IMG/VR virus record: IMGVR_UViG_3300020478_000009 | Location: 1-56,319 of that record | Length of the DNA stretch: 56,319 nt | Direction: 5' to 3' (one strand) | From: a virus | Lineage: Duplodnaviria; Caudoviricetes | Shown here: positions 5,120-55,300 of the stretch, piece by piece | Position numbering within the stretch: position 1 is the first letter of the stretch | How the letters are laid out: the number at the start of each line of letters is the position of its first letter | Program-made: the position numbers and the translations under genes | The notes under the pieces: model-generated | Database searches by the model: none | Seen by the model: the letters and a program-made list of their open reading frames with translations, nothing else | What the model was told of the DNA's origin: nothing

Positions 5120-6673
5120 TTAACGAATGTCCCAAGGATTAGATTGAGTTAAACCAGTAGCTCCAATGATCGGGACTTTTCCACGTGGTGTCTCGTATAA
5201 AGCTAGAAGAATAGCTTCAGCCCTATCCGGGGACGGCACTCCACGTTTACGCATAGCTTCTTTTTTCTCAATCGTAATTCGACCAGAAGAATCTGAGCCA
5301 TAACGAGGCACAGAAAGTTGAGCGGCAGTTTTCCTATCAATCTCTAGTCTTACTTCCTGTAGGCCATTGGAATCTGGTTGTAAAAGTCTTCGAGTGTTCC
5401 ACCACATTTCTGCTCGCTGATTAGCAAATTGCTGAGGCGACCCAGAGCGTTCAGCAACATTAACTCGAATGATCTCAGCACTATGTCGGCGTTCTGTTTT
5501 CCATGTTTCCAAGATAGAAGCTACACCCCATCCAACTCCGACTGAATCAATTTTTACTCTTATGGGTTTGCGCCAAGGCCCGCGATCAGCAAATTTTTCT
5601 GCTTCTTCGATTTGTCTGAGTATTTGACCTGCGACATCTACAGCATTGATATTTGCTATACCACCTTGTGTATAAACCAAACGTACTGAGAAACCTTCGG
5701 CTCTAGCGATTGCAACTTCATCACCACCTCCTGCGGCGACATCAACACCTAATCTAATTTCGTCACTATAAGATGGGGCCTCATTTTCCATACTTCGTTC
5801 AACCCAGTCAATAGGAATAACTCGGTTACCTGTGTCTCTTGGAAATTCGGCGTGAACTCTGGCTTTGACATAAGCAGAGTCTTCACCAAATTCTCTGATT
5901 ACATCATCAACCCATTCTTGATTGATTAACTGTTGAGCTATTTCAGGTGGGCATTCTTCACCAGTAAAGTTAGGCGTGACTGAAGCTGGAATTTTTACAA
6001 CGTTATAGTTTCCGGCTTCGACTGCTCGTTCAAACCATGTATCGGAATCATCACTGGGAGGATTTCCAATAGCTAGTAAACGTGTGTGTCCACCTGTCAT
6101 TAGAGACTCAAATCCTTTTCCCAGTGTTGGACTAATACCTCCGGCTTCGTCAACAATAATTAAAAGATGAGGAACGTGGATTCCCTGCACACTTGCTTCA
6201 TCATGGTCAGAAGGAGAGAAACCAAAAGCTATTAAATCACGACCTTGTTTCCATTCGGTTGTTGTCATTTCTCCTAGAAGAGAACCTGCAGCGTGAACTT
6301 TGCGAATGTGAGGCCAAAGAATTGTACGCACTTGTCTAAAAGTTGGCGCTGTAGTTATCACTAGAGCAGATCCCGGTGGATGAACCGCTCCCCACCATGC
6401 AGCGGCTCTTGCCGCTATATGGGATTTACCGGGAGCGTGACACGCTGGGACTGCTGTTCTTTTATTATCTACTAGAGAGCGAAGTATTTCTCTTTGCTTT
6501 GACCAGAGAAATTCCCCTAAAGCTATTTCTACAAACCCTTCAGGGTAATCCTCGAATACGGCCCATTTTGTTCCACGTTCAGCTTCGAGTGCTTCCCATG
6601 CAAGTTTGCCTTCAGCATTAAGGATTTTTAAGCGTTCCTGTGGTGGTAGGTCAAAAAGTAAATCTAGAGACAT
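5120..6673 (-). CDS. terL: Terminase large subunit
   Basis: Walker A ACHAPGKS, Walker B IIVDEA, nuclease LGVDVA and SPDRAEA. Confidence 0.92.
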   Translation of the reverse strand: MSLDLLFDLPPQERLKILNAEGKLAWEALEAERGTKWAVFEDYPEGFVEIALGEFLWSKQREILRSLVDNKRTAVPACHAPGKSHIAARAAAWWGAVHPPGSALVITTAPTFRQVRTILWPHIRKVHAAGSLLGEMTTTEWKQGRDLIAFGFSPSDHDEASVQGIHVPHLLIIVDEAGGISPTLGKGFESLMTGGHTRLLAIGNPPSDDSDTWFERAVEAGNYNVVKIPASVTPNFTGEECPPEIAQQLINQEWVDDVIREFGEDSAYVKARVHAEFPRDTGNRVIPIDWVERSMENEAPSYSDEIRLGVDVAAGGGDEVAIARAEGFSVRLVYTQGGIANINAVDVAGQILRQIEEAEKFADRGPWRKPIRVKIDSVGVGWGVASILETWKTERRHSAEIIRVNVAERSGSPQQFANQRAEMWWNTRRLLQPDSNGLQEVRLEIDRKTAAQLSVPRYGSDSSGRITIEKKEAMRKRGVPSPDRAEAILLALYETPRGKVPIIGATGLTQSNPWDIR

Positions 6674-12172: not shown

Positions 12173-12814
12173 ATGACAGCAAAATTATTTTCAGCCTTAA
12201 CAGCTTTTATGGCAATGTTTAATACTTGTACTGGACAAATTGCCGAAACGCCGGGAGTCGCTCACATAAATGAGCCTGTAGTGACCCACACAGCGATCAC
12301 AGACTCTTCTTCAGTAGAACGCACTCCTATCCCTCTTTATCACCAGCAGGCTTTCAGAACAGCTATAGAACGCCCTCAGGAGCCAATAGATTTAAACGGC
12401 TACGGTAGATGGTTAAAAGCACAGGGGAAACTGGAAGAATGTCCTATAAATAAGCCCTGTGAAATTGATCCTGAGCTTTATATAGAGCAATTACCAACTC
12501 TGGAAGAACTGGTTAACTGGTTTTTCCCTAAATGGTCTGATCGTCAACTGTTTCTAAGGATAGCTTTTTGCGAGTCGAGTGCTAAACCTACAGATAAGTA
12601 TTCAACAGCGGTTAATAAATCTAGTGGAGCTTCAGGCTGGTTTCAACACTTACCAAAATTTTGGTTAGAACGAACCAAAAAAAGCGAATATTTTGATGGT
12701 TTTCATATTCTTGATCCGATTGCGAACGTAGGTATGGCGGCTTGGATTTATTTTAATTTGCCGGGCGGTAGTAGTCATTGGTATCCCAGTCGTTCATGTT
12801 GGGAGAAGCAATGA
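12173..12814 (+). CDS. Exported lytic transglycosylase-like (lysozyme fold) protein
   Basis: Signal-like N-terminus; RIAFCESS..AVN..GASGWFQ..ANV..AA. Confidence 0.7.
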   Translation: MTAKLFSALTAFMAMFNTCTGQIAETPGVAHINEPVVTHTAITDSSSVERTPIPLYHQQAFRTAIERPQEPIDLNGYGRWLKAQGKLEECPINKPCEIDPELYIEQLPTLEELVNWFFPKWSDRQLFLRIAFCESSAKPTDKYSTAVNKSSGASGWFQHLPKFWLERTKKSEYFDGFHILDPIANVGMAAWIYFNLPGGSSHWYPSRSCWEKQ

Positions 12815-13791
12815 GTCCTGCATGGGGTTGTGTACCACCTGTGGATAAACCATATAAACATGGCTCTTTTTGCACAGGCTACGGCGGTTTAGATATGGCT
12901 ATTGAAGAGTTTTTTGATGCTGAAACTGTTTGGTATTCTGAAATAGAAGCATCTTGTAATACGTTGTTAGAGCAACATGGATATAGAAATAATTTAGGTG
13001 ATTTAACAAAAATAGACTGGAACGAGGTAGAACAAGTAGATATTATGTCTGCTGGTTTCCCTTGCCAGCCGTTTAGTATCGCAGGCTCAAGGAAGGGTTT
13101 TAATGATGAAAGAGCAATCTTTGAATGGATCGCGGACGGTATTAGCATTTTACGACCAAGAATTGTCGTGTTGGAGAATGTCGGAGGCCTCCTTACTCTT
13201 GGAGGAACCAGCGTTGTTGGATTACTTACCCGCATCGGGTATGACTGTAGATGGAGCGTTGTTTCCGCTTCCGAAGCCGGAGCGCCACACCAACGAAGAA
13301 GATGGTTCTGCATTGCAGAGGCGAAAAACTTTATTGCCTACACCGATGGCACACGACCACAAAGACACAGGATTAGCTCCATCACAGGAGAACAGGGGGA
13401 CACGGACACTTCCAGTGGTACTACATTTGCTACCAACACCGCTAGCACTCGGCTCGAACGACAGCGGTTTAGCTCCAACACAACTTCGAGGAAACTTTCA
13501 ATCAACTTCGGCAGTGCTACGGAAAATAGCGAACAACCAGACTTCGTGTGGGGAAAATACGAAGGAGCCATTAGAAGATGGGAACACATTATTGGGAGAT
13601 TGGCTCCATACCCAGTAGCTGAGAGAGGAGTTAATCCAGCGTTTACAGAATGGATGATGGGTTTACCTGAAAATCATGTGTGTAATCGAGGTTTATCAAG
13701 AGCAAAAGAATTAAGGATGCTTGGCAACGGTGTGGTTCCTCAGCAGGCGCTTTTGGCTTTAGAGATGTTGTATGACTGGAGATGCGACTAA
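12811..13791 (+). CDS. C5-cytosine DNA methyltransferase, copy 1
   Basis: FCTGYGG, GFPCQPFS, ENV, QRRRWF, EWMMGLP, LGNGVVP. Confidence 0.93.
   Translation: MSPAWGCVPPVDKPYKHGSFCTGYGGLDMAIEEFFDAETVWYSEIEASCNTLLEQHGYRNNLGDLTKIDWNEVEQVDIMSAGFPCQPFSIAGSRKGFNDERAIFEWIADGISILRPRIVVLENVGGLLTLGGTSVVGLLTRIGYDCRWSVVSASEAGAPHQRRRWFCIAEAKNFIAYTDGTRPQRHRISSITGEQGDTDTSSGTTFATNTASTRLERQRFSSNTTSRKLSINFGSATENSEQPDFVWGKYEGAIRRWEHIIGRLAPYPVAERGVNPAFTEWMMGLPENHVCNRGLSRAKELRMLGNGVVPQQALLALEMLYDWRCD
13103..13618 (+). CDS. Nested +1-frame ORF in MTase 1 (putative beta subunit)
   Basis: 171-aa open frame; AAGGAAGG upstream; two LLPTP repeats; paralogous to 14056-14484. Confidence 0.6.
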   Translation: MMKEQSLNGSRTVLAFYDQELSCWRMSEASLLLEEPALLDYLPASGMTVDGALFPLPKPERHTNEEDGSALQRRKTLLPTPMAHDHKDTGLAPSQENRGTRTLPVVLHLLPTPLALGSNDSGLAPTQLRGNFQSTSAVLRKIANNQTSCGENTKEPLEDGNTLLGDWLHTQ

Positions 13792-14630
13792 TGAATGAAT
13801 CACTAACTCACGGCTCTTTTTGTACAGGCTATGGAGGGCTTGACATGGCTGTAGAGGAATTTTTTGGAGCTTCAACTGTCTGGTATTCTGAAATAGACTC
13901 AGCGTGTAATAAGCTTTTAGCTAAATATGGTTATGAAACAAATTTAGGTGATTTAACAAAAATAGACTGGGATAAGGTAGAGCCTGTCGATATCATGTCG
14001 GCTGGTTTTCCTTGCCAACCTTTTAGTTTTGCAGGAGAAAGAAAAGGAGAAGAAGATGAAAGAGCAATTTTCCAGTGGATCGCTGACGGCATTAGCGTTC
14101 TTCGACCAAGAATCGTCGTGTTGGAAAATGTCGCAGGAATCCTTAATCTCGGAGGACCATCAGTCCTTGGAGCTATTGCCAGCTTGGGGTATGACGCAAG
14201 ATGGGGCATTGTACGGGCTTCCGATGTCGGAGCACCACATCAGCGACAAAGATGGTTTTGCGTTGCTAACGACACCACAAGCGTCAGAGAACATCCGGGG
14301 CAGACCGAAAAGATTCGAGGAGAGAGTACACAAGGCGAAAAAAGAGTACCGGTACGATTTAGCAGACCAGATAGTCTACATAGCGATTTTGAATGGGGGC
14401 GATATGGGCCTGCTATTAAACGATGGGAAGGCGTTTTGGGAAGGTCGGCTCCAGAACCCTGCACAAACGTCAATGACAGATTGATAAATAGTTCTTTTTT
14501 GGAATGGATGATGGGTTTACCTGAAAATCATGTATGCAATCAGGGGTTAAGCACATCTCAAGAGTTGCACGCCTTAGGTAATGGCGTAGTTCCCCAGCAG
14601 GCTTATCATGCTTTGGAGTTGTTGGTATGA
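13791..14630 (+). CDS. C5-cytosine DNA methyltransferase, copy 2
   Basis: Same motifs as copy 1; TAATG coupling at 13789-13793. Confidence 0.93.
   Translation: MNESLTHGSFCTGYGGLDMAVEEFFGASTVWYSEIDSACNKLLAKYGYETNLGDLTKIDWDKVEPVDIMSAGFPCQPFSFAGERKGEEDERAIFQWIADGISVLRPRIVVLENVAGILNLGGPSVLGAIASLGYDARWGIVRASDVGAPHQRQRWFCVANDTTSVREHPGQTEKIRGESTQGEKRVPVRFSRPDSLHSDFEWGRYGPAIKRWEGVLGRSAPEPCTNVNDRLINSSFLEWMMGLPENHVCNQGLSTSQELHALGNGVVPQQAYHALELLV
14056..14484 (+). CDS. Nested +1-frame ORF in MTase 2 (putative beta subunit)
   Basis: SD AAAGGAG at 14043-14049, 6 nt before ATG 14056; SCWKMSQ..LPAWGMTQDGALY..LLTTPQASE. Confidence 0.62.
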   Translation: MKEQFSSGSLTALAFFDQESSCWKMSQESLISEDHQSLELLPAWGMTQDGALYGLPMSEHHISDKDGFALLTTPQASENIRGRPKRFEERVHKAKKEYRYDLADQIVYIAILNGGDMGLLLNDGKAFWEGRLQNPAQTSMTD

Positions 14631-20157: not shown

Positions 20158-20652
20158 ATGAATAACATTATAGAACCCGATTTTGGAAGCAGAGCTTTCC
20201 GAGGAGACAAACGAAAAGAGTATTTAGAACACCTGCGTAACGGTATGGGCCGAAAGCAAGCTGCAAGAGCTACAGGTGTAGGAATAAGAACTGTACAAAG
20301 ATATGTAAATCAACATCCAGACTGGGAAGCAGAACGAGATGAAGCTGAATCAGAAGCCATTGAGCTAGTAGAGAACGCTTTGTTCAATACAGCGGTAGAA
20401 GGCAATGTCTCAGCAGGCATCTTTTTTCTGACTAACAGGTCGCCTGACAGGTGGACAGATAAACGTAGACCGAATATAAACCTTAACGCTCAAGCGGCTG
20501 TCGCTATAGGTGATGGCGAGCATGAGGGTGTGGTTGGAAGAATGATAGCTAGAGCAGAAGCTCTACTAACAGAAGGAGAAGAAACAAATGGCGAACGCCG
20601 AAGTAGTAATGTCAGGGAACTTGGTAGCGGACCCGGAGGTAACACAAACTAA
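20158..20652 (+). CDS. terS: Terminase small subunit (HTH)
   Basis: HTH RKQAARATGVGIRTV; VENALFNTAVEGNVSAGIFFLTNR..W; TAGCAT lies 7 nt before ATG. Confidence 0.75.
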   Translation: MNNIIEPDFGSRAFRGDKRKEYLEHLRNGMGRKQAARATGVGIRTVQRYVNQHPDWEAERDEAESEAIELVENALFNTAVEGNVSAGIFFLTNRSPDRWTDKRRPNINLNAQAAVAIGDGEHEGVVGRMIARAEALLTEGEETNGERRSSNVRELGSGPGGNTN

Positions 20653-22106: not shown

Positions 22107-23438
22107 GTGACTGACCTTATAGATACTTTTGCTGAGAACGAAATTAAAAAAGCGACCTCCACTGATTTTATGGAGATCGGTTCTTCTGGTTTACACGTTT
22201 ATGACGGACAAGTAAGAGAAGAGTTTCTAACTCAGCTTCGTGGAAGAAACGCTTACAAGACATATCGGGAGATGCGTGACAACGATCCTGTTATTGGAGC
22301 GGTGCTTCAAGCTATAACTATGTTGATGCGCTCAGTTGAATGGCAGGTTGAACCTGCTGATCCTGAGGACCAGAAAGCGGCTGATGTCGCAGAGTTCTGT
22401 GGTAGCTGTCTAACGGACATGAGTCAAACATGGGAAGATATGCTCGCTCAGATAATGACTTACCTTACTTACGGCTGGTCATATTTTGAGATTATCTACA
22501 AATACCGTAAAGGCTGGAATGAGACAGGGGATCGTTCCCGGTATGACGATGGGATGATCGGTTGGCGAAAGCTTGCACCACGCGCTCAGGACACTTTGGA
22601 ACGCTGGGAGTTAGATGAGAACGGCGGAGTTCAAGGCATGTACCAGATGAACCCTGTGTCCGGTAAAGGACAGGTTCTTATTCCTATTGAGAAAGCTTTG
22701 CTGTTTAGAACATCTAGTGCTTTGAACAACCCTGAAGGCAAATCGGTTTTAAGAAACGCTTACACTTCTTACTATTTTAAAAAACGAATACAAGAGATCG
22801 AAGCTATCGGTATTGAACGTGACCTTGCAGGGCTACCTATCGCATACGTGCCACCTCAACTACTTTCAGATAACGCTACAAGCGAAGAGACAGCGGCTTT
22901 AGGTGAAATAAAAAAGATTATTCGTAACATTAGGCGTGACGAGCAGGAAGGCGTGGTCTTTCCGCTGGCTTACGATCCTGAGACAAATAACCTTGCTTAC
23001 GATTTAAAGCTTCTCTCGACTGGTGGTGATCGTCAGTTCGACACAGATGCGATCATAGGTAGATACGATCAGCGCATGGCGATGACGATGCTCGCTGATT
23101 TCATTCTTTTAGGACACGAAAAAGTAGGGACTCAAGCCTTGTCTGTTTCTAAGGTCGCTTTGTTCAGCCAAAGCTTGAACGCTTACCTAGATGGAATAGC
23201 GGCAGTATTTCAGAATCACGCATTCCCTAGATTGTTGAAGATCAACAACATTGATGCGAATTTGACTCCCAGTCTTACTCACGCACCAGTAAGAAACGTG
23301 GACTTGAAAGAACTCGGCGAGTATGTCAGCAAACTCACCGGTTCAGGAGCCACGCTATTTCCTGATGATCAGCTTGAAGCTTACTTGAGAGAGGTTGGCG
23401 GTTTACCAGTAAGCAGTGATGCTGAATCGGTTGACTAA
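22107..23438 (+). CDS. Portal protein
   Basis: YREMRDNDPVIGA, YGWSYFEI, NPEGKSVLR, IGIERDLAGLP; first gene of head operon. Confidence 0.9.
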   Translation: MTDLIDTFAENEIKKATSTDFMEIGSSGLHVYDGQVREEFLTQLRGRNAYKTYREMRDNDPVIGAVLQAITMLMRSVEWQVEPADPEDQKAADVAEFCGSCLTDMSQTWEDMLAQIMTYLTYGWSYFEIIYKYRKGWNETGDRSRYDDGMIGWRKLAPRAQDTLERWELDENGGVQGMYQMNPVSGKGQVLIPIEKALLFRTSSALNNPEGKSVLRNAYTSYYFKKRIQEIEAIGIERDLAGLPIAYVPPQLLSDNATSEETAALGEIKKIIRNIRRDEQEGVVFPLAYDPETNNLAYDLKLLSTGGDRQFDTDAIIGRYDQRMAMTMLADFILLGHEKVGTQALSVSKVALFSQSLNAYLDGIAAVFQNHAFPRLLKINNIDANLTPSLTHAPVRNVDLKELGEYVSKLTGSGATLFPDDQLEAYLREVGGLPVSSDAESVD

Positions 23439-26400
23439 TGCCGCTGACTATAGGGCGTTCTCGCCGGTCAGGTTTCGCTAAAACTGTTGTTAAAATCCCG
23501 CGCAAGCAGGTAGCTGGACAACCGGGGTTAGAGCCTGTAGACGCTCCTTTAACTCCATTAGAGAAAAAAGTAGCTCGTATTTTTGTTGAGGCTTTAACTT
23601 TCACACCCCGGCAAATATCCAGACTATTAGAAGAAGATGAAACTGTAGGAGCGTTAACACCTTTTTTAGAGCATCTTGAACCTGCTCGCAAAGAACTATC
23701 TGACGCTTTAATGGAACAACTCGATGAGTCCGGGGCTTTCTTCTGGAATGAACTTGTTGATCAGCTTAAACGTAAACCTGATCCCTCATCAGTTAATTTC
23801 ATTGCTAAAAACCAAATCAGAAAAGAGATTGATCCTGAAGACGTAACAGTAGTGATGCCTACAGGGGCAGAGTTCACCAGTAGTTTCTCTAAACGCACAC
23901 CACGCGGTAAACGCTGGGCTGATAACGAATCAGCGAGACTAATAACTAACATCGCTGAAGAAACAAGAGAGAACCTGCAAGACGTTATTGCTTCTGCTAC
24001 CGGGCGTGGGGGCAGGCAACGAATGATGACTTTACTGGGAAACGTTTTAGAAAACGCTCCTGCGGGTATTGACTCTGGGAATGTTCTCACAAAGTTTCAA
24101 TCTGAAGTCTCACCGGCTGTCGCAGGGCTTACATTCAAACAGCATAATGCTGTAATCAATACAGCTAATAAAGCTTTTGATGATGCTTTAGCTAAAGGCT
24201 TGCCGTTTAATAAAGCTGTTGAAGCGGCTGAGAAAGAAGCTTTAGCTCACGGTAAACGTGCGCGTGAATATCGAGCAAGAATGATTTCACGTACTGAGAT
24301 GATGGAAGCTTCAAACAGGGGAAAGCTCGAAGCGGCGAAACAAGCCGCTGAAGCTGGAATGTTTAACCCTCACAGGGCAGGTAGACAATGGGTTACTTCT
24401 ACTTTCGATGTTTGCGTTACTTGCGAACCTTTGCATGGGAAAGTTGTTGCGTTTGAAAGTGGAACCTTCCCAGCGAAATACAAAGTTAGCGGGAACTGGG
24501 TAGAGGAACCCCACGATTTACCTCCGGCTCATCCAAATTGTCGATGCACTTGGACACTGGTTTACGACACCGTAGTTCCTCCTACTGCTACAGAGACAGG
24601 TGTTTTAACTCCTCCAAAAGATGTTCCATTAGAGTTGCTTAACCGAGCGTGGGCTGAAGCAGGCAAGCTCGCTCGTTCTGTAGCTTCAGTACAAGACGAA
24701 GTTACTGGAGTGATGGTAAGTGTCGCTGACGACATCGGCGCAGATATGTATGGGTTGCAACACGCAACAAAAACAGAAGCTTCTCTAGCTCGTAAAATCA
24801 CAACAGATTTCACAGAAGAAGTAGCTAAAGATCCGACACTTACTGTAGAAGCTGTAGCTGAGGACATTGGAGATGCGCTTAGGTTTACGATGATCGCTGA
24901 TGCTGAAAATTACACGGATGATGTGATGGCGGCGCTTCGAGATTTAGAAGCCCGTGGTTACACGTACAAGAAGGCTCCTAAGAATTTTTGGCGAGTTGAT
25001 AATCTGAAAAATCCGTACAACGGAATTAACGTGAATATGCGTACACCTACTGGGCAAATAGTGGAAATTCAGTTTCATACCCCTGAAGGTATCGCTATGA
25101 AAAACAGGATTCATCCTCTTTATGAGAGACAGCGAGCTATTGGTGTTACTCAAGAATTGAAAGATGAGATCGCTGAAGAAATGGCTGAGATGGTTTCAGT
25201 GTTGGATTATCCGGATGATGTAACCGATTTGCGGTTCTTCCCTGATGAAGAAATCAAGTATCGTTTAGAAACTGAAGATGACATTGTTGCACGTTTTGGT
25301 GGTAAGTGGCCTGAAGGATCAATGGATGCTTACACGGATGCTGACGGCAACTGGTGGGAGATGCGTGAAACCCTGCATGAGAACATAATCGAAGAAGGAT
25401 TGTCGAAAGCTACACCTGTTGAAGAACCGATAGTGCATTTCATGGGAGGAGGCCCTGCATCCGGTAAAGGCACAGCGATTAGGCAAGGACTGATAGATGT
25501 CCCTGACAACATCGTGGTTGTTGACGCTGACGAGATTAAAGATGCTTTACCTGAATATAAAGCTTTGATTGATGACAGGTCATCGAGAGCGGCGGCGTAT
25601 GTGCATGAGGAAAGTTCGTATTTGTCGAAAGAAATGTTCCAAGAGTCGATTGATAGTGGAAGAAACACTCAGCTTGACGGTACAGGAGATTCTTCTATAG
25701 AGAAGCTTCGCTCTAAAGTCGCATCAGCTAGAGAAGCTTCATCAGCGCAAGGCGGAACTAGAGTGATTGCTGATTACATAACTATTGACACGGAAGAAGC
25801 TGTTAAACGAGCAAGAAGTCGAGCAATTCGCACAGGTCGTTCAGTCCCAGAGTCGGTTGTTCGTGAAACACATGCAAGTATCAGTAGGATATTCCCTGAT
25901 ATTCTTGATGAGAATTTGTTTGATGACATTAAGCTTTGGGATACAGCGTTTGATCCACCGAAGCTGATTTTACGTAAAGTTGATGGTGTTCTTGAAATTT
26001 ATGACGAAGCGGCTTATGAACGTTTCTTGTTGAAGAACCCTGATTATCCCGGTGCTGGTATCAAACCGGGAATTGAGCCGATTATTGACAGTAAGAGCCG
26101 TGTTTATTTAACGATTGATGAACAGTATGATCCGCTTCGACAGTCGCAAGTTCACGAACCTTTTTATGAAGAGAAACTGGCTCAAGGCGTTCCTACCGAT
26201 GAACCTGATGTAGTGATCTTGGGAGGAGGCCCTGCGTCTGGTAAAGGTCATTTATTAGATAGAGACATTATTGAAAAACCTGAAGGTCATATTGTTGTTA
26301 ATCCTGATGACGCTAAAGCAGTCATACCTGAATATAAACAAATTATCGAAAATGGTGACAGTTGGGCTTCTACTTATGTTCACGAAGAATCTTCTGACAT

Positions 26401-28159
26401 GGCTCAAGAGCTAATGGCAAGAGCGCTAGTAGATGAAAGCATCCCAGTCATTTTAGATGGAACTGGAGATTCAACTTACGAAAAGTTAACGATCAAAGTT
26501 AATACAGCACGACAAAGAGCTAAAGGTGGAAGAGTTCGAGGGGAGTATGTCACATCAGATATTGATGTCGCTATAGAGAGAGCGGCAATACGGGCTAAAA
26601 GAGAAGGTCGTGATGTTCCTGAAGGAGTAATCAGAGAGACTCATGTGAATGTTTCTAAAGTTTTCCCTAAAGCGGCTGATGACGATTTGTTTGACGAGTT
26701 GCGTTTGTATGACACTAATAGTGGTGAGCCTGTTTTGATTTACGAGAAGATTGATGGTGTTGAAAACATTATTGACCCGGAAGCTTACGAACGGTTCTTA
26801 ATGAAGAATCCTGATTATACTCCACCTGCGTCTGAGACAATAGAATCTTTGCGGTCTATTACTGAAACATTGTCAAATATGGAAGATGACTTGGGCATTT
26901 CTCTTCTAGTAGATGATGCCGGTAATTATGCTGGCACACCTGCATATTATGCTGATGATGTGCCTGTTCGTGTAGAAACAGGTACGAGCTATGCAGATGA
27001 GGTAGAAGTAGTGGGAAGTTTCAAAGAGCAGAAAGAAACTCTTGATGTCGCTTTGGAGATGGTAGATAGTGCGTTTGCTCCACCTACAGGTGGCTTGTCG
27101 CTTTACTGGGATAGGAGACCAAAGAAAGTTGAGTTTCGTTACACTCCAACTAAACCTAAAGGAAAAGACGGTTTAGGTGGTTCGTATAACAAAAAGAAAT
27201 ACCCAGACAGGCCTAAACGTGTAGCTAAACCTGCACGTATAAAAAAGATGATTCCGGAGGTTACCTCGAATTTAGACGAATGGGCAAAACAACGATCATA
27301 TGCACTTGGTGAACCTATAGCGGCATTAGATGTGGCTACTGGTCTTCCCGCAACTGTAAATGGCAAAATTGCTTACGTTCACGACAATATGGCAGAACAA
27401 GCTAAACAATACAGACACGTTGCGACACGATTAGAAGAACTCAATAAGCGGGCTATGCAGGACTCGGCTTTGTTTGAACTTTATGGTTATGAGAGTGCTG
27501 AAGAAATGCTGGAAGAGTATTACAGCTACTGGTACGCACAAGCTGAACGTTTAGAAGAAATTGATGTATATGATCGTGGATACATCGGGGAGTCTTTCCG
27601 TTTCATCAGGCTCCGACCGGGAACTAAAGGCAGTCGAACAAACGCTCTTGTGCATGAGATAGGACACGATTTTGATTACATGCAAGAAATAGAACTTGTC
27701 TTAATTAAAAACAAAGAAAAGATGCAACTCTCGCCAAATGATAGCAACATAGAAATTATTTTTGATTTGTATAAGAGAGGCAAAATTAATAAAGCGTCAG
27801 TTGGAGAGCAGGGCTTGGCTTACATTGAGTTCATGGAAAACGTTGTTGAGAGCAAGGCTTACAAAAAGTTACTTTCACAAGAAGTTCAGGACACGATGTT
27901 GAACGCAGGAATGTCGCAAGCGGAAATATCTGCTTACCTACAATACGCTACCAGTCCAAAAGAAGTTTGGGCTAGAGCATTTAACCAGTGGACTACAACA
28001 CGACATGGGCGTAATGCACCTGACGCAGTAGAAGATATGCTAGTCGAATCTTTGCCATCGTTTAATAACATTGGTTTTCAGTGGGAACAAGAAGATTTTG
28101 ATATAATGGTAGCACCATATTTAGAGAAAATTTTTAAAGCAAACGGGTGGGTTGAGTAA
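23438..28159 (+). CDS. MuF head-morphogenesis protein fused to RelA/SpoT(Apk)-type synthetase, two zeta-toxin kinase domains and a C-terminal HEXXH domain
   Basis: MuF: RARMISRTE, C..C, PPAHPNCRC. Synthetase: KTEASLARK, DALRFT, KNFW, YNGIN, EIQFHT. Zeta x2: GGGPASGKG, D..K...PEY, HEES, DGT. C-terminus: HEIGH, EVWARAF. Confidence 0.88.
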   Translation: MPLTIGRSRRSGFAKTVVKIPRKQVAGQPGLEPVDAPLTPLEKKVARIFVEALTFTPRQISRLLEEDETVGALTPFLEHLEPARKELSDALMEQLDESGAFFWNELVDQLKRKPDPSSVNFIAKNQIRKEIDPEDVTVVMPTGAEFTSSFSKRTPRGKRWADNESARLITNIAEETRENLQDVIASATGRGGRQRMMTLLGNVLENAPAGIDSGNVLTKFQSEVSPAVAGLTFKQHNAVINTANKAFDDALAKGLPFNKAVEAAEKEALAHGKRAREYRARMISRTEMMEASNRGKLEAAKQAAEAGMFNPHRAGRQWVTSTFDVCVTCEPLHGKVVAFESGTFPAKYKVSGNWVEEPHDLPPAHPNCRCTWTLVYDTVVPPTATETGVLTPPKDVPLELLNRAWAEAGKLARSVASVQDEVTGVMVSVADDIGADMYGLQHATKTEASLARKITTDFTEEVAKDPTLTVEAVAEDIGDALRFTMIADAENYTDDVMAALRDLEARGYTYKKAPKNFWRVDNLKNPYNGINVNMRTPTGQIVEIQFHTPEGIAMKNRIHPLYERQRAIGVTQELKDEIAEEMAEMVSVLDYPDDVTDLRFFPDEEIKYRLETEDDIVARFGGKWPEGSMDAYTDADGNWWEMRETLHENIIEEGLSKATPVEEPIVHFMGGGPASGKGTAIRQGLIDVPDNIVVVDADEIKDALPEYKALIDDRSSRAAAYVHEESSYLSKEMFQESIDSGRNTQLDGTGDSSIEKLRSKVASAREASSAQGGTRVIADYITIDTEEAVKRARSRAIRTGRSVPESVVRETHASISRIFPDILDENLFDDIKLWDTAFDPPKLILRKVDGVLEIYDEAAYERFLLKNPDYPGAGIKPGIEPIIDSKSRVYLTIDEQYDPLRQSQVHEPFYEEKLAQGVPTDEPDVVILGGGPASGKGHLLDRDIIEKPEGHIVVNPDDAKAVIPEYKQIIENGDSWASTYVHEESSDMAQELMARALVDESIPVILDGTGDSTYEKLTIKVNTARQRAKGGRVRGEYVTSDIDVAIERAAIRAKREGRDVPEGVIRETHVNVSKVFPKAADDDLFDELRLYDTNSGEPVLIYEKIDGVENIIDPEAYERFLMKNPDYTPPASETIESLRSITETLSNMEDDLGISLLVDDAGNYAGTPAYYADDVPVRVETGTSYADEVEVVGSFKEQKETLDVALEMVDSAFAPPTGGLSLYWDRRPKKVEFRYTPTKPKGKDGLGGSYNKKKYPDRPKRVAKPARIKKMIPEVTSNLDEWAKQRSYALGEPIAALDVATGLPATVNGKIAYVHDNMAEQAKQYRHVATRLEELNKRAMQDSALFELYGYESAEEMLEEYYSYWYAQAERLEEIDVYDRGYIGESFRFIRLRPGTKGSRTNALVHEIGHDFDYMQEIELVLIKNKEKMQLSPNDSNIEIIFDLYKRGKINKASVGEQGLAYIEFMENVVESKAYKKLLSQEVQDTMLNAGMSQAEISAYLQYATSPKEVWARAFNQWTTTRHGRNAPDAVEDMLVESLPSFNNIGFQWEQEDFDIMVAPYLEKIFKANGWVE

Positions 28160-28374
28160 TGGTTTTACCTAAGTTTATGTCAACAGAAGAAGCCGAAGAG
28201 GCTTTAGGAAACGCGCCTAAGTATGATTTAGTTATGGATGATGAAGACACAGTTGAGTTCGGAGAATCTATGTCAAGCTTTTTTAGCTCACATGAAGAAA
28301 GACTAGAACTTGTTGAACGAGGAGTAATCATTTCTGCTTATGATGCTTTTCCTTATTCGCCTGACGATGAGTGA
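28159..28374 (+). CDS. Small acidic protein, candidate immunity protein
   Basis: TAATG-coupled directly behind the MuF toxin gene. Confidence 0.55.
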   Translation: MVLPKFMSTEEAEEALGNAPKYDLVMDDEDTVEFGESMSSFFSSHEERLELVERGVIISAYDAFPYSPDDE

Positions 28375-28705
28375 CGTAGCATTAAATTGGTTTATTAACG
28401 AAGCGACCGGTGAGCGAGTAGTTTTAAGAAACCAACAAGGAGAAGACTGGAAAAAAGATTCCGCTTGTAAAGACTCTTCAGTTAAAACATTCTTCTTAGA
28501 GAAAGGTTCTACTGGTGTAGTAAGAGCTAGGGAGATATGTGCCGATTGTCCAGTCAGAGTTGATTGTCTTGATTATGCGTTGCGACATGGTGAGAAGTGG
28601 GGAATCTGGGGAGGGTTGACTTCAACTGAGCGAAGGCCCTTCCGTAGGTTGCAGTTAGAGAACCCTGAACAGGATTTAAAGCCGATCTGGCAAAAAATTT
28701 TTTAA
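28367..28705 (+). CDS. whiB: WhiB-family Fe-S transcription regulator
   Basis: W...AC, CADCPVRVDCLDYAL, GIWGGLT. Confidence 0.93.
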   Translation: MSDVALNWFINEATGERVVLRNQQGEDWKKDSACKDSSVKTFFLEKGSTGVVRAREICADCPVRVDCLDYALRHGEKWGIWGGLTSTERRPFRRLQLENPEQDLKPIWQKIF

Positions 28706-30241: not shown

Positions 30242-30277
30242 TAACTCTGGCTCTTCTCAGTTGATATTATTGTGTTT

Positions 30278-31510
30278 ATGCCTTATTCAATTACCAGTAA
30301 CCACAAAGATTGCTCAACGTTTGCAGTTGTTAAAGACGATGATGGTAAGTTGATGGGGTGTCATGAAACACGTGAAGCGGCTAAAAGACAGATAGCCGCA
30401 TTGTACGCATCTGAAGGAGCGAGCATGGAAAAAGCAACCAAGACTGATGATGGTAACGAATATCCTGCTAAAGCTTATGCGTATGTTCCTGATGCTGAGA
30501 AACCTTCAACATGGAAGTTACGTCTTTGGCAAACCCCTGAGATGGGAGTAACACGTAGGCAAGTTGGTTTAGCGATAGCCGCTTTAGGTAAAGGATATAG
30601 AGGAAACAGAGTGCGAATACCTTCTGGTGATCTTCCGGCTGTTAAAAATCGAGTGTTGAATGCGTGGTTGGATGTTCACCCTGAGATGAATCGTAGTGAT
30701 GCTCCCAGAGTTCTTTTAGCTAGTCGCATGACTGTAGCTACTCCTGCTGATAAGCGTCTTTACGACAAAGGGCATAACGACTGGCAGAGCGATTCAATGA
30801 CTTTGTTGCTTATGGCTTATCGTGAAATGCTGAATCATCCTAATTGTGAAGAGTTGCTTGAACCTCTTATGGAACTCATTCACATGAAGCAAGACATCAT
30901 GTTAGAAGCAATGGAAATTGAACTGGATGAAGAAGAAGACTATGAATATGCTCTTGAGCAACCCACGTTGGAAAGAATTAAAAGAGCGTCATTAAGACAG
31001 TTGACCAAATGGATTAACGGCATGGATAAGATGGGCGATTCTCGCGATGTCGCTGTGTTAAGAGCTTACGTTGAAGCAGAGATTAAGAGTCGAATAAACA
31101 AAGCTGGTTTCGTTGTAGAAAAAGCTGAAGCTAAACGTTACACACTAGGTCCGGTGTACGTGCCAAACGTTGAAGATGCTCATGGAGAGTTCACAGATGA
31201 TGACACTTTACAGGAAGCACTTTGGGGATGGATGCAAAAAGATGATCGTTCCATTTACTTGCAACATTCTGAAACTAAAGCAGGAGAGTTTGTTGAACTA
31301 TTAACATGGCCTTTCGCAATGAAAGCAGAGATGAGTTTGCCTGATCAAGAAGCTCAAGAGTTTGAGTTTCCCGCAAACACACCTTTCATGGGTGTTATAT
31401 GGGAACCTTGGGCATGGGAGCTTGTACAGCAAGGAGAGCTTCGTGGTTACTCAATCGGAGGAACGGCTCGCAGGGTTGAAGCGGATCTAGGTGAACTGGT
31501 TTCTGCGTGA
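30278..31510 (+). CDS. Capsid maturation protease (XkdF-like) with N-terminal extension
   Basis: YTLGPVYVPN..DAHGE, LQH, GYSIGG; TATTAT lies 7 nt before ATG 30278. Confidence 0.8.
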   Translation: MPYSITSNHKDCSTFAVVKDDDGKLMGCHETREAAKRQIAALYASEGASMEKATKTDDGNEYPAKAYAYVPDAEKPSTWKLRLWQTPEMGVTRRQVGLAIAALGKGYRGNRVRIPSGDLPAVKNRVLNAWLDVHPEMNRSDAPRVLLASRMTVATPADKRLYDKGHNDWQSDSMTLLLMAYREMLNHPNCEELLEPLMELIHMKQDIMLEAMEIELDEEEDYEYALEQPTLERIKRASLRQLTKWINGMDKMGDSRDVAVLRAYVEAEIKSRINKAGFVVEKAEAKRYTLGPVYVPNVEDAHGEFTDDDTLQEALWGWMQKDDRSIYLQHSETKAGEFVELLTWPFAMKAEMSLPDQEAQEFEFPANTPFMGVIWEPWAWELVQQGELRGYSIGGTARRVEADLGELVSA

Positions 31511-51894: not shown

Positions 51895-52322
51895 GTAAAG
51901 AGCTTACAGAAGCATTAACTAACATTCAGGATAAGCTGAATGAGATCATTCCCTGTCGTTGTGCGCCTGAAAAAGCCCCGGAACAAAGCAAAATAGAACA
52001 GGCAACGTCTTTAATTGACAAAATTAAAGATAATATCGCATATATTGTTGGTTTGCCTGCAACTCTGGGCGGGGCCTTTGGGTTCCTTTGGGATTCATCG
52101 GCTGAAGAAGCCGAGTTGACACACAAGGTTACAATGCTTGAAGAAGCTGTTGCTGGCCTTAAAGCGGAAAATGACTTACTAGGTGGAGGAACAAAGAATT
52201 TCTCTATTGATATGAGTTCAGCCCCGGGAGGTTCCCTGACGGTAATAGTTATAGCAGGAGTAATCGCTGTAGCTGTTGGGTTTCTGATTGTTTATCAGAA
52301 GCGCCGTAGAAGCCATTCTTGA
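51888..52322 (+). CDS. Membrane protein (two hydrophobic segments, basic C-tail)
   Basis: IVGLPATLGGAFGFLW and VIVIAGVIAVAVGFLIVY-KRRR. Confidence 0.65.
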   Translation: MDSKELTEALTNIQDKLNEIIPCRCAPEKAPEQSKIEQATSLIDKIKDNIAYIVGLPATLGGAFGFLWDSSAEEAELTHKVTMLEEAVAGLKAENDLLGGGTKNFSIDMSSAPGGSLTVIVIAGVIAVAVGFLIVYQKRRRSHS

Positions 52323-55300
52323 AGCGCTGCAGGCTTTTACTGGGTAGATTACTGGGTAATTTACTGGGTTTACTGGGTAATTCAGGCTCTTTATACCCCA
52401 GAGCAGTTAGAAAACCCTATAAAATCAAGAGTTTTGATATACCGGGATGTCCCAGCTCCTCTAAGAGCCTGTCACGGGGGTTAATAGCCTCAGGCGCTCT
52501 AATTGCTCTTCTAAGCGTTTCTTGTGCAGAAGCAACTAAATCTACAAATGTATCAGCTGGGGAAGCCCCAGATGAGCTTGTAGAGCCTGTAGAAGCTAAT
52601 TCTGAAGTTAGTAATACAGAAATTACCACTGGGAAAATAGGAGCTGGAGAAACAGGTTCAGGAGCTGGAGAAACAGGTTCCCAGAACAGGGCTATTCGGG
52701 CTTCTACTGGGTATAAGCCTGTCAAAGATGGCTTTGGTTTCGAGAATTTTGGTGGAGGAGAAGCTCCGGCTGAGTTAACAGTGAACATGACACGCAGATT
52801 TTATGGTGATAATCAAGTCTGTTCAGATGTAACAGACAACGAATGCACACCTTACCCAGTTATTTTACAGCTAATCGCTCAGGCTAACAGGTCAATGCAG
52901 GGAGGCTTATGTGAAGGTTTAACGGTTCTTTCCTTGCGATTAGCTAACGACCTGAAAGCTCTTACAGGCTTTCAAGATGTTGAAGATGTAGCTTCGCTAA
53001 TTAAAGAAGATCCGGCTCTCCTCTCGGAGATTGCTTACTGGTATGTAACCCAGTTTGCTATCGAAGTTCAGCAAGAAGCCGCACAGTTTTTAGAACTTTC
53101 TCCTTTAGCTTTAGCTCGTATTCTTTACGAAGATTTCGCTAAAGCAGAAACTGGTGAACCTTCAGTCGGTTACACGATGGGTATTTACTCTGAGCAAGGA
53201 GGACACGCTGTTACTCCATACAAAGTTGAAACTAATGGAGATATTTGGCGCATTTACATTTACGATTCCAACTGGCCTACAGCTGAAAGATGGATAGATG
53301 TAGATGAAGATGGTTGGAGTTATGCGTTAGCCGCAACTAATCCAACAGAAAAAGCTGAAGCTTGGGGTGGTGGGATTGGCACAATGGAACTCACACCTAT
53401 GACGGTAAGAAATGGGCCGTTCACTTGTGCTTTTTGTCCATCTGATAAAGAAGAAAAATCTGGAACTCTTTTAACTGTTGCCGCTTCAGGTAGCAAGCAA
53501 ATGGCTTTACAGATTGAAACTCCAGAAGGAAACCGTTTAGGGTATTACGATGGTTCTTTTGTAAATGAAATTGAAGGTGCTACTTATCGGTATCTGATTT
53601 CCGGACCTAGCACCGCTGATCCAGTAATGGTTTTTTTACCACCGGGAGTAGATGATTTCAGTGCAGATGTAGACGTTATTGATGTTCCCACTCCGGGAGA
53701 TTCTTCATCGTCTGTCCAATCCTCCCCCTCGATTCCTCAAGAATCGGAGGTCAGTATCCCACCGGAGCAGGAACCTATTACAGAAAATATCACACAACAG
53801 TTTTCATTACTGATTTTAGATGAAGAGAAATCAGTTCAAATTGAAGCTGAGGTAATTGAAGAAGAACCAATTTCTGCGGAGATAACAGGTGAACCGGAGA
53901 TTGCAGAATCTTTAATCAATTTTTCTGAAGAATCTGTAGAGATAGCCGACATTGAAGAAGCGGCAGTCGCTATCGCTGTAGATGCTTTAGAAGTAGAAAT
54001 AGACGTAGAGCAAGGTCAACAGGTGGCTGTCCAATTCGTTCCTGAGCCACCGCCTGTAGTAGAAGCAGGACAACCTGAACCAGTTGTAGAAGCTCCAGCA
54101 ATGTTAGATATTTCTATTGCTGATGACACAGGTGAAGTGCTTGCAGAAGTAGAGGTTGATTTAACTCCTTTCCGTGTTGAGGACAGACAGGAAGAGACAG
54201 AGCTAGAAGAAGAACCTGAACAAGCTCCCATAGTGCTTGCGATTTCGTTTGATGAGGAGATCGGTGAAATAGAACAAGTAGAAGAGTCTATCGAAGCTTG
54301 GGTGGCTTCAGACGCAGAATACTTTCAAGCAATCGTAGAGGATCGGTTAGATGAAGTATTAGGTGAAATTTATGTTGAGGAATTAGAAGAACGAGAAGAG
54401 TGGGAACTTCCTGAAGAATTTTTTGAAGAAGAATTTGATTTATTAGACACGCTATTAGCAGTTGAAGAAGAGTACTGGGAAGATGAACACTGGGAAGAGA
54501 TTGAGTATGACGAGGAATGGTTTGAAGAAATTGAATTAGCCGAAATTGAGTTATTCGGTGTTTACGAAGAAGAAGAGTGGTGGGATGAAGAAGAATGGAT
54601 AGAAGAAGATGAATGGTTTGAAGAAATTTGGATTGAAGAAGAATGGATCGAAGAACAATTTGATCCTGAACAATTATTTGAAAGATTTGAGGAACAAGAA
54701 AATGAAGAATTATTGGAAGAAATTTTTGATGAATTTGAAGAGTTTGAATTTGAAGAAGAAGGAGAAGAAGAACTCCTCGAAGAAGAGTGGTGGTTGGAAG
54801 AACCCGAAGGGCTTCCCGAATCCTTTGAGGAAATAGACTTTGAGGAAGAGTGGGAGGAAGAGTGGAACGAACTTCCTCCTACTACCACATGGATGGAAGA
54901 GTGGGATTTTGACGAGTTCGGTGAAATACCTGAAGATATGCTCGGATGGTCAGACGAAGATTTTGATTTATTTGAAACATTTTTAGATAACACAATAGAA
55001 GAAGAAGAATTAGAAGTCTGGGAGGAAGATCCTTTTCTTAACACTGAGGAAGAATGGGAAGAATGGGAAGATGAGTTTTGGTTTGAAGATTCTGAACTAG
55101 AAGATGATTGGGTAGATGATTGGATAGAAGAGGAGGAAGAAATTGAAGAAGAAGAAGAAACCCCACCACTTGAAGAAGAAGAATGGGAGAGTAACACCGA
55201 AGAAGAAGCTGATGAGTTCAGCGAGCTTGCCGAAATCATAGAGGAGGAATGGGATAATCCTTACGCAGATTGCATAGGCACTTCAGCTTGTGAAAATGCA

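Follow-up and report, generated by a model that had tools for sequence, protein, structure and literature searches.

The stretch of DNA analysed here (the window) corresponds to the complete IMG/VR virus record IMGVR_UViG_3300020478_000009, 56,319 bases long with direct terminal repeats, and its genes follow a siphovirus order: replication and methylase genes, small terminase, portal, the gene at 23438-28159, protease, scaffold, major head protein, tail and lysis. The gene at 23438-28159, which is the subject of this analysis, is a single open reading frame (ORF) on the plus strand that starts with ATG and encodes a protein of 1573 amino acids (aa), P0001. It lies in the head module, in the order portal, P0001, 71-aa ORF, protease, scaffold and major head protein, and the last base of the portal ORF is the first base of the P0001 ORF (Table 1). 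An initial annotation of the window had described this gene as a MuF head protein carrying an alarmone synthetase, two zeta kinases and a zincin-like domain. The motifs on which that description was built are all present in the single 1573-aa ORF, within or near the proposed ranges, and the description as a MuF-type head protein with more than one enzymatic domain is borne out by Pfam, PHROG and PDB matches together with the gene position after the portal. On the evidence set out below, we consider it fairly probable that P0001 is a virion-borne polyvalent effector that combines an alarmone synthetase with two kinases and a C-terminal module.

Table 1. Coordinates of P0001, its domains and the associated genes in the window (aa, amino acids; E, expectation value; pLDDT, predicted local distance difference test)
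Feature	Position	Strand	Basis
MuF-fused polyvalent head protein P0001, whole gene	23438..28159	+	ORF list, translation; Pfam Phage_Mu_F and two Zeta_toxin matches
MuF/SPP1 gp7-type head-morphogenesis domain, aa 81-377, ends HPNCRC	23678..24568	+	phrog_3517
Apk/EAS-type RelA-SpoT-homologue pyrophosphokinase domain, aa 403-596	24644..25225	+	PDB 8vx3, XopAD and S. pneumoniae phage matches
Zeta-family P-loop kinase domain 1, aa 633-871	25334..26050	+	Pfam Zeta_toxin, phrog_16619, alignment to 1gvn
Zeta-family P-loop kinase domain 2, aa 905-1127	26150..26818	+	Pfam Zeta_toxin, phrog_505, identity to domain 1
Linker, Lys/Arg/Pro-rich, predicted disordered, residues 1136-1289	26843..27304	+	sequence, model pLDDT
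C-terminal cap domain, residues 1290-1573, HEIGHDFD ... Y..Y...EVWARAF.QW	27305..28156	+	33-member family, motifs, weak LPD1 match
Strongly acidic 71-aa ORF, net charge -15	28159..28374	+	sequence; TAATG, ATG shares one base with the P0001 stop
Portal protein gene, directly upstream of P0001	22107..23438	+	phrog_113, E = 1.1e-81
Aph1-like HD-domain small alarmone hydrolase, 172 aa, 4.2 kb upstream of P0001	18678..19196	+	Pfam HD_4; PDB 7smg
XkdF-type (S78) prohead serine protease domain protein	30272..31510	+	Pfam Peptidase_S78_2, E = 1.9e-13

The N-terminal domain of P0001 matches the PHROG head-morphogenesis family phrog_3517 (E = 3.4e-25), and the TIGR01641 model gives the protein 21.9 bits against a cut-off of 39.65. 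Because of the PHROG match and the position after the portal gene, the prediction that P0001 is a MuF/SPP1 gp7-type minor head protein, with the MuF domain as its anchor, is well supported. The end of this domain, which had been placed at about nucleotide (nt) 24565, fits the HPNCRC motif at aa 365 (nt 24530). MuF proteins are described as DNA-binding and as present in about two to three copies per head (PMC12226406, PMC10083569). The cultured marine siphovirus cyanophage P-SS2 encodes a 1499-aa fusion of MuF and Zeta_toxin domains (ORF030, or gp030), annotated as 'head morphogenesis' and adjoining the portal gene, and its publication lists this protein in purified virions by mass spectrometry with an average of 96.5 peptides (PMC2784084). 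By analogy with P-SS2 ORF030, P0001 would be carried in the virion as well.

Downstream of the MuF domain, the second domain contains the motifs SLARK (aa 449, nt 24782), DALRFT (aa 479, nt 24872), KNFW (aa 515, nt 24980), YNGIN (aa 527, nt 25016) and EIQFHT (aa 543, nt 25064). No Pfam model matches it; the NCBIfam model of the XopAD C-terminal Rel-like region does (E = 4.9e-25), and its closest solved structure is SaEAS, the exported alarmone synthetase of Streptomyces albidoflavus (PDB 8vx3; PMC12691689), which is matched with E = 4.5e-12 by the region alone and with E = 1.3e-20 by a profile of nine family members. The domain is closer to the SaEAS/XopAD type than to other solved synthetases and, unlike SaEAS, is embedded in a head protein. 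Residues D479, R482, N531, E543 and Q545 align with D121, R124, N169, E182 and Q184 of SaEAS, respectively, and K515 is shifted by a single position relative to K154 when aligned by phmmer; the aligned residues correspond to ATP-site positions given for SaEAS and Apk1 in PMC12691689. D479, K515, E543 and Q545 are invariant in 9/9 family members. Among GenBank phages, the matches to the synthetase region are minor head proteins of Streptococcus, Pasteurella, Mannheimia and Haemophilus phages. A 527-aa MuF protein of Streptococcus phage phiARI0746 matches the synthetase through its C-terminal domain, with 30% identity (E = 2e-21), and this MuF gene is followed by a 69-aa ORF and then by a 'metal-dependent phosphohydrolase', which is the order apk2-iapK-aph1 described for a pneumococcal prophage in PMC12226406.

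With its homology to SaEAS, its retained catalytic residues and an Aph1-like hydrolase encoded in the same genome, the Tas1/Apk-type pyrophosphokinase of the initial annotation is upheld, and its assignment from sequence as an Apk/EAS-type alarmone synthetase is well supported. From the conserved residues we infer that the synthetase makes (p)ppApp; as further clues to the product, an Aph1-like hydrolase is present in the genome, yet the closest solved relative, SaEAS, is dual-specific. Turnover is above 100,000 per minute for SaEAS and is given as 180,000 per minute for Apk1. At the rates published for these relatives, few synthetase molecules could therefore suffice to exhaust the ATP of a small cell quickly. 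As a separate observation, the synthetase domain of one relative, P0005, is only 41% identical, as against 80-84% for the flanking domains, and may be a swapped or altered-specificity cassette.

The HD-domain protein encoded upstream has PDB 7smg, a '(p)ppApp hydrolase', as its best PDB match (E = 3.1e-17; next match 3.7e-08), and is 45% identical (E = 3e-23) to the phosphohydrolase encoded after the MuF-Apk gene of the S. pneumoniae phage. Its HD motif is present, and the Aph1 specificity residue D24 is kept as D26. The gene is retained with 88% identity in L002, the one close relative with enough flanking sequence. A search for the protein elsewhere found two viral loci only, a close relative with both HD and Apk genes and a distant one (L164) with neither Apk nor MuF inside the locus.

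A comparison with the Apk2 family places these two genes in context. Apk2 proteins, known from prophages of S. pneumoniae, B. caccae, M. haemolytica and P. multocida, are MuF-fused adenosine 3'-pyrophosphokinases accompanied by IapK and Aph1 as immunity proteins. Like them, P0001 has an N-terminal MuF domain and a homologous kinase domain with SLxRK, DALRxT, KNxW, YxGxN and ExQxHT, and the same phage encodes an Aph1-type HD hydrolase with the 45% identity noted above. Unlike in Apk2, the pyrophosphokinase of P0001 is internal and followed by about 980 more residues, rather than standing at the C-terminus; the hydrolase gene belongs to a different gene block 4.2 kb upstream instead of following immediately; an IapK/Tis1-like gene was not recognised; and the phage is without an integrase. 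A search of the complete genome found no integrase or resolvase of the tyrosine or serine recombinase type, and no integrase is among the 70 ORFs scanned against PHROGs. Since the recombinase search of the genome was negative, a temperate lifestyle was rejected.

The synthetase is followed by two P-loop domains, in which GGGPASGKG starts at aa 670 and aa 929 (nt 25445 and 26222) and is succeeded by PEY (aa 705/964), HEES (aa 723/982) and LDGTGDS (aa 746/1006). The two domains share 48% identity over 226 aa (E = 1e-69) and are therefore truly duplicated, as first proposed. Pfam Zeta_toxin matches P0001 in two stretches (E = 3.1e-44), and the zeta toxin structure 1gvn aligns to domain 1 (E = 2.3e-07). 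The Walker A lysine (K677/K936; zeta K46) and the aspartate equivalent to zeta D67 (D698/D957) are kept in both domains, which look catalytically competent. In both, however, the zeta sequence G117-T-G-R120-T121 reads G-T-G-D-S, and zeta E100 aligns with Lys in the 1gvn alignment. DGTGDS is invariant in nine family members, which argues that the change of the GTXR motif is not decay. The zeta domain of P-SS2 gp030, with 36.6% identity over the zeta region, also carries DGTGD; unlike P0001, gp030 has one zeta domain and no Apk-like match. For a wider comparison we collected 101 long proteins by sequence, P0001 among them, using a query that held all P0001 domains, so that architecture counts in this set are biased towards these domains. 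GTGD is present in 106 of 116 related domains (those with a Walker A motif and HE[ES][SA], from the 101 proteins plus P-SS2 gp030), P-SS2 included. In the same set, at least two zeta-like domains occur in 27/101 proteins, two of which have three, and Apk-like and zeta-like domains occur together in 16/101.

The membership of both domains in the Zeta_toxin family thus stands, and the UDP-N-acetylglucosamine (UDP-GlcNAc, or UNAG) target that the initial annotation had attached to it does not: with GTGD in place of GTXR in 106/116 head-fused domains, a cell-wall-precursor target is unsupported. UDP-GlcNAc binding is reported to require the GTXR motif in zeta/PezT, and PezT of M. tuberculosis, which is without the UNAG site, has been argued to have another substrate (PMC6362051). 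The canonical UNAG-kinase reading was rejected on the two substitutions seen in the 1gvn alignment. Judged from these motifs, the kinases belong to a large phage-head clade with HEES...DGTGD whose substrate is not UDP-GlcNAc; most likely it is a nucleotide, an NAD-like molecule or a nucleic-acid end. Non-canonical members are also known among zeta/PezT relatives, such as AvrRxo1, an NAD kinase, and the M. tuberculosis PezT. Unlike zeta/PezT, the P0001 kinases stand in tandem and are fused to a head protein. By sequence, no epsilon/PezA-like antitoxin was detected among the three ORFs downstream of P0001, which give no PDB sequence match below E 0.4; as short antitoxins diverge fast, one may still be encoded there. 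One remote possibility is that the kinases act on an adenosine nucleotide that the adjacent Apk domain makes or leaves behind, so that the alarmone would be phosphorylated further and be beyond the reach of host hydrolases; another possible substrate is a nucleotide immune signal or an NAD-type cofactor, which would be inactivated by phosphorylation.

The same motifs bear on a different role, in which the kinases would be no toxins at all and would serve the phage, for example as 5'-OH polynucleotide kinases repairing tRNA or DNA termini left by the nucleases of host defence or as nucleotide kinases, delivered early, before phage expression. Domain 2 is matched by phrog_505 'polynucleotide kinase' (E = 1.4e-10), the kinase family profile also matches the polynucleotide kinase Pnkp1 (E = 7.9e-05), and the UNAG motif is missing. 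A P-loop fold with a general-base Asp is common to kinases of the polynucleotide kinase (PNK) type. The best matches are nevertheless the zeta toxin 1gvn and Pfam Zeta_toxin, not PNK families; no RNA ligase partner was identified, the PHROG label 'RNA ligase' at 30272-31510 covering the S78 domain; and fusion beside an ATP-draining synthetase fits attack better than repair. We therefore hold a phage-serving role of the kinases to be rather unlikely.

The kinases are followed by a linker, which has a pLDDT below 50 at residues 80-144 of a 438-aa model and is conserved only in P0002, P0003, P0006 and P0102, and by a C-terminal cap domain with HEIGH at aa 1406 (nt 27653; H1406, E1407, H1410 and D1413 within HEIGHDFD) and EVWARAF at aa 1509 (nt 27962). 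In an exhaustive HMMER search of 1.84 billion representatives, this domain was found in only 33 proteins (E <= 0.001). In 31/33 of these representatives the match ends at most 11 residues from the protein C-terminus, and MuF, VG15 or Phage_min_cap2 domains are present in 16/22 proteins scanned. HExxH is conserved in 29 of the 31 sequences spanning it, with an Asp three residues on in 28, and the Glu of E.WAR is conserved in 35/35. In line with the zincin-like domain suggested by the initial annotation, HExxH is thus combined with an invariant downstream Glu as in zincins. An AlphaFold (AF2) model of the 284-residue C-terminal region (pLDDT 84.5) is nearly all helical; HEIGH (1406-1410) lies on helix 108-125, and E1509, about 100 residues after the HExxH, opens helix 218-237. 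This arrangement, HExxH on a helix and the third-ligand Glu on a later helix, is that of the lethal-factor core and of M13 neprilysin-type zincins at the motif level, and the model is without a clear beta-sheet ahead of the HExxH helix. An Asp three residues past HExxH is also described for a phage-type metallopeptidase (MPTase) by Iyer et al. 2017 (PMC5512222). We call the domain zincin-like by motif, a zincin fold being a candidate only.

For the cap domain, Pfam LPD1 (PF18796) scores 14.9 bits (E = 0.0014), below the cut-off of 27, at window positions 27941-28003, over EVWARAF, and matches the tail of 15/21 aligned relatives (E <= 1; best 3.6e-06). A profile of the C-terminal domain against the PDB gave weak matches to M3B, ADAMTS, serralysin and lethal factor, which at E 0.03-0.6 are not significant. 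By VIA, the better model aligned with the lethal-factor catalytic core 2l0r (Z 5.0, rmsd 3.8, 99/106 residues aligned) and an earlier model with M13 peptidases (Z 4.6-5.1), neither being significant by the guidance of the tool; the list for the better model is dominated by a helical hairpin at residues 34-97. A BFVD structure search returned other MuF proteins only, a profile of the C-terminal region against a set of 5.8 billion proteins gave 6 matches and added no annotated zincin, and tblastn of the domain against GenBank phages gave no match. Membership of Pfam MPTase-PolyVal (PF18818) was rejected, a six-frame search of the whole genome having given no match at E <= 10.

A further scheme builds on the wall-precursor target and the possible release of domains by the zincin in the initial annotation: the zetas, as UDP-GlcNAc 3'-kinases, would block peptidoglycan synthesis or soften the wall at injection, and the zincin would cut the polyprotein into functional parts. 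The strong Zeta_toxin match (E = 3.1e-44) and the conserved HExxH with its downstream Glu agree with it, and Iyer et al. proposed the same role for MuF-fused zeta-like kinases and autoprocessing for the MPTase (PMC5512222). Against it stand the GTGD motif and the Lys at the zeta E100 position as well as the matches to Pnkp1 and phrog_505 described above. Moreover, the cap domain mostly stands on plain MuF proteins of about 470-950 aa, two-domain proteins with nothing else to release, and relatives with other C-termini keep the same multi-domain trunk without it. Release of domains by the zincin is thus made less likely as a general role, and we regard the scheme as a whole as quite unlikely.

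The relatives of P0001 further show that its end is exchangeable. Full-length relatives are P0002 (80% identity) and L002 (85%); the full architecture is found in 2/101 long proteins, P0001 and P0002, with P0006 as a compatible fragment and P0003 as a version with one zeta domain. MuF-Apk-zeta-zeta trunks that are 72-98% identical end in at least three unrelated C-termini (P0001/2/3, P0004/5 and P0007-12), which argues that the end is exchangeable, as in polymorphic toxins. As observations on these alternative ends, the C-terminal modules of P0004, P0005 and P0007-P0012 share a recurring 'RGD...G.G.YG.GTYF' motif, which we take to resemble ADP-ribosyltransferase/PARP-like sites. A different HExxH, FHEFTH, stands at the end of P0007, and P0008 carries DUF3626 as well.

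The cap domain is paired with the small acidic ORF directly downstream. L002 has the 71-aa ORF with 100% identity; L003, in which the MuF gene has another end, lacks it. A small acidic ORF (35-100 aa, net charge <= -5, start at or before +5 from the stop) follows 47/69 distinct viral genes that end in the C-terminal domain, compared with 3/59 MuF genes without the domain (Fisher p = 2e-14), although the loci are mutually related and the counts therefore not independent. Searches of Pfam, PDB and PADLOC gave nothing for the 71-aa ORF, Pfam matched 0/44 of the small acidic ORFs at related loci, and the 71-aa ORF gave no alignment with the 69-aa ORF at the IapK position of the pneumococcal phage. 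Among the small acidic ORFs, 12 that follow MuF genes (loci L084-L161) share an A.F..A.E.G...GD-type motif, and others share (Y/F)D(I/L).(Y/F/L/M)D(D/E); BLAST clusters have sizes of 12, 3, 3, 3, 2, 2 and 2, plus 21 singletons.

These findings could be taken to mean that P0001 is a classical MuF polymorphic toxin for bacterial competition, with the conserved N-terminal 1130 aa as delivery trunk, the exchangeable C-terminus as the actual toxin tip and the small ORF as an immunity protein for cells harbouring the phage. The concept of such toxins is set out in PMC5576092, and set beside the MuF polymorphic toxins of Jamet et al. 2017, the P0001 family has a variable C-terminus and the downstream ORF is a candidate partner, while a temperate lifestyle is unsupported because no recombinase is encoded in the genome. 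The 72-98% identical trunks with at least three unrelated C-termini, the perfect conservation of the 71-aa ORF beside the same C-terminus (L002) and its absence beside a different one (L003), and the conserved pairing of C-terminal domain and small acidic ORF all agree with this view, as does the report of metallopeptidase domains in 20% of MuF toxins (PMC5576092). However, the model of MuF toxins is linked to a temperate lifestyle and the genome has no integrase or resolvase, the trunk has three active-looking enzyme domains, so that the tip is not the sole warhead, and the co-variation rests on two loci against one. Weighing both sides, we find it unlikely that P0001 is such a competition toxin. 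It also appears quite improbable that the HEES/DGTGD kinases constitute a large head- or portal-fused family with a novel zeta substrate and that, separately, the HExxH/LPD1 cap with its acidic ORF is an undescribed enzyme-inhibitor or enzyme-chaperone module.

As to its class, polyvalent proteins in the sense of Iyer et al. unite at least two unrelated effector domains, are encoded alongside the virion genes of a phage and are predicted to enter the cell with the DNA. P0001 belongs here, as its MuF domain is followed by four domains of enzymatic type and its gene lies in the head module. Iyer et al. 2017 (PMC5512222) describe virion-delivered polyvalent proteins with MuF, RelA/SpoT, zeta-like kinase, zincin-like MPTase and LPD domains as components, and MuF-(p)ppApp synthetases are described as the Apk2 family (PMC12226406; PMC10083569). 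Because multi-domain MuF/polyvalent effectors were already described in 2017, P0001 is best filed in this known class and not as a new system, and the novelty claimed in the initial annotation was overstated. P0001 differs from the described cases in its internal synthetase, tandem non-UNAG kinases, unlinked hydrolase, lack of an integrase in the genome and pairing with an acidic ORF. A megablast search of the P0001 gene against GenBank phages gave no match, and 0/151 matching GenBank phage records (of 50,697) cover at least 80% of P0001, although this architecture may stand in the supplement of Iyer et al. 2017.

The virion-borne effector that we favour could work as follows. The MuF domain would place a few copies of P0001 in the capsid at the portal, and these would leave with the DNA, as suggested by the family, the gene position and the P-SS2 virion relative. 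In the cell, the Apk/EAS-type domain would transfer pyrophosphate from ATP to the 3'-OH of ADP or ATP, and possibly of GDP or GTP, so that (p)ppApp is made, ATP is drained, and host metabolism and ATP-dependent responses would be arrested within minutes. The Aph1-like hydrolase, encoded in the non-structural block, would probably reverse or limit this effect later, protecting the cell as new P0001 copies form. The two kinases would hit a second target, a small molecule or a nucleic acid. The HExxH/E.WARA end would be an exchangeable MuF module, probably a zinc hydrolase, that works with the acidic protein or is checked by it. Should P0001 be cleaved, the candidates for the cut would be the C-terminal domain of P0001 itself and the S78 prohead protease (30272-31510).

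Several points weigh against this proposal. The Pfam PF04233 (Phage_Mu_F) score of P0001, 29.4 bits, is just below the curated cut-off of 29.6, which 4/8 scanned relatives pass (relatives 30-35 bits). In the synthetase domain of relative P0005, Ile stands at the R482 position and Asp at the N531 position. The Aph1 signature of the HD protein is partial: Gln stands opposite R96 and Asn opposite D116, and the signature residues R119, K133 and Y134 lie beyond the alignment. For the cap domain, Foldseek against the PDB gave no match at E <= 0.001 with either C-terminal model, VIA Z-scores are at most about 5 and Pfam MPTase-PolyVal is unmatched, so that the zincin fold is a putative one. For this uncultured phage we infer packaging, ejection and every activity of P0001. 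Finally, draining the ATP of a host that is still needed looks self-defeating for a recombinase-free phage, unless the effect is brief or dosed.

So far, toxins of the MuF-(p)ppApp synthetase kind have been known from temperate phages of host-associated bacteria, whereas the window phage is uncultured and without an integrase; an Apk-type example of this kind supports a role in host takeover during infection, beyond competition between lysogens. Zeta-like kinases on phage head or portal proteins are common, with 100 further long fusions in one search and one in the virions of a cultured cyanophage, and the definition of a zeta-like clade without the UDP-GlcNAc motif makes its target testable. 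In phage head modules, the C-terminal HExxH domain and a small acidic ORF make up a pair that had not been remarked on before.

Other genes of the window are of interest in their own right. The S78 protein of 412 aa is a candidate processing enzyme for head-internal proteins and might act on P0001. Its S78 (XkdF) domain is confined to the last ~125 residues, its N-terminal ~150 residues match the unannotated family phrog_19463, and the best PHROG for its C-terminal part bears the name 'RNA ligase', apparently a mislabelling that came about through a fusion protein. A distance of about 13.5 kb separates the sole large-terminase-like ORF (5120-6673, minus strand; phrog_2, E = 1.7e-33) from the portal gene and from the small-terminase-like ORF (20158-20652), and the interval between small terminase and portal is without any large ORF. 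Two adjacent, overlapping DNA methyltransferase genes (12778-13791 and 13782-14630, plus strand) belong to the same PHROG families, phrog_363 and phrog_116. At the right genome end, after the lysis genes, lies a 1313-aa ORF (52319-56260, plus strand) with no PHROG match at E <= 1e-5 and no PADLOC match; PADLOC likewise gave no match for P0001, the HD protein or three small ORFs. Within the head module, a WhiB-family gene (28340-28705, plus strand; Pfam Whib, E = 2e-20) overlaps the end of the 71-aa ORF; it is present in L002 and not detected in L003. Genes of this family typically occur in Actinobacteria and in the phages of these bacteria, which hints at the host.

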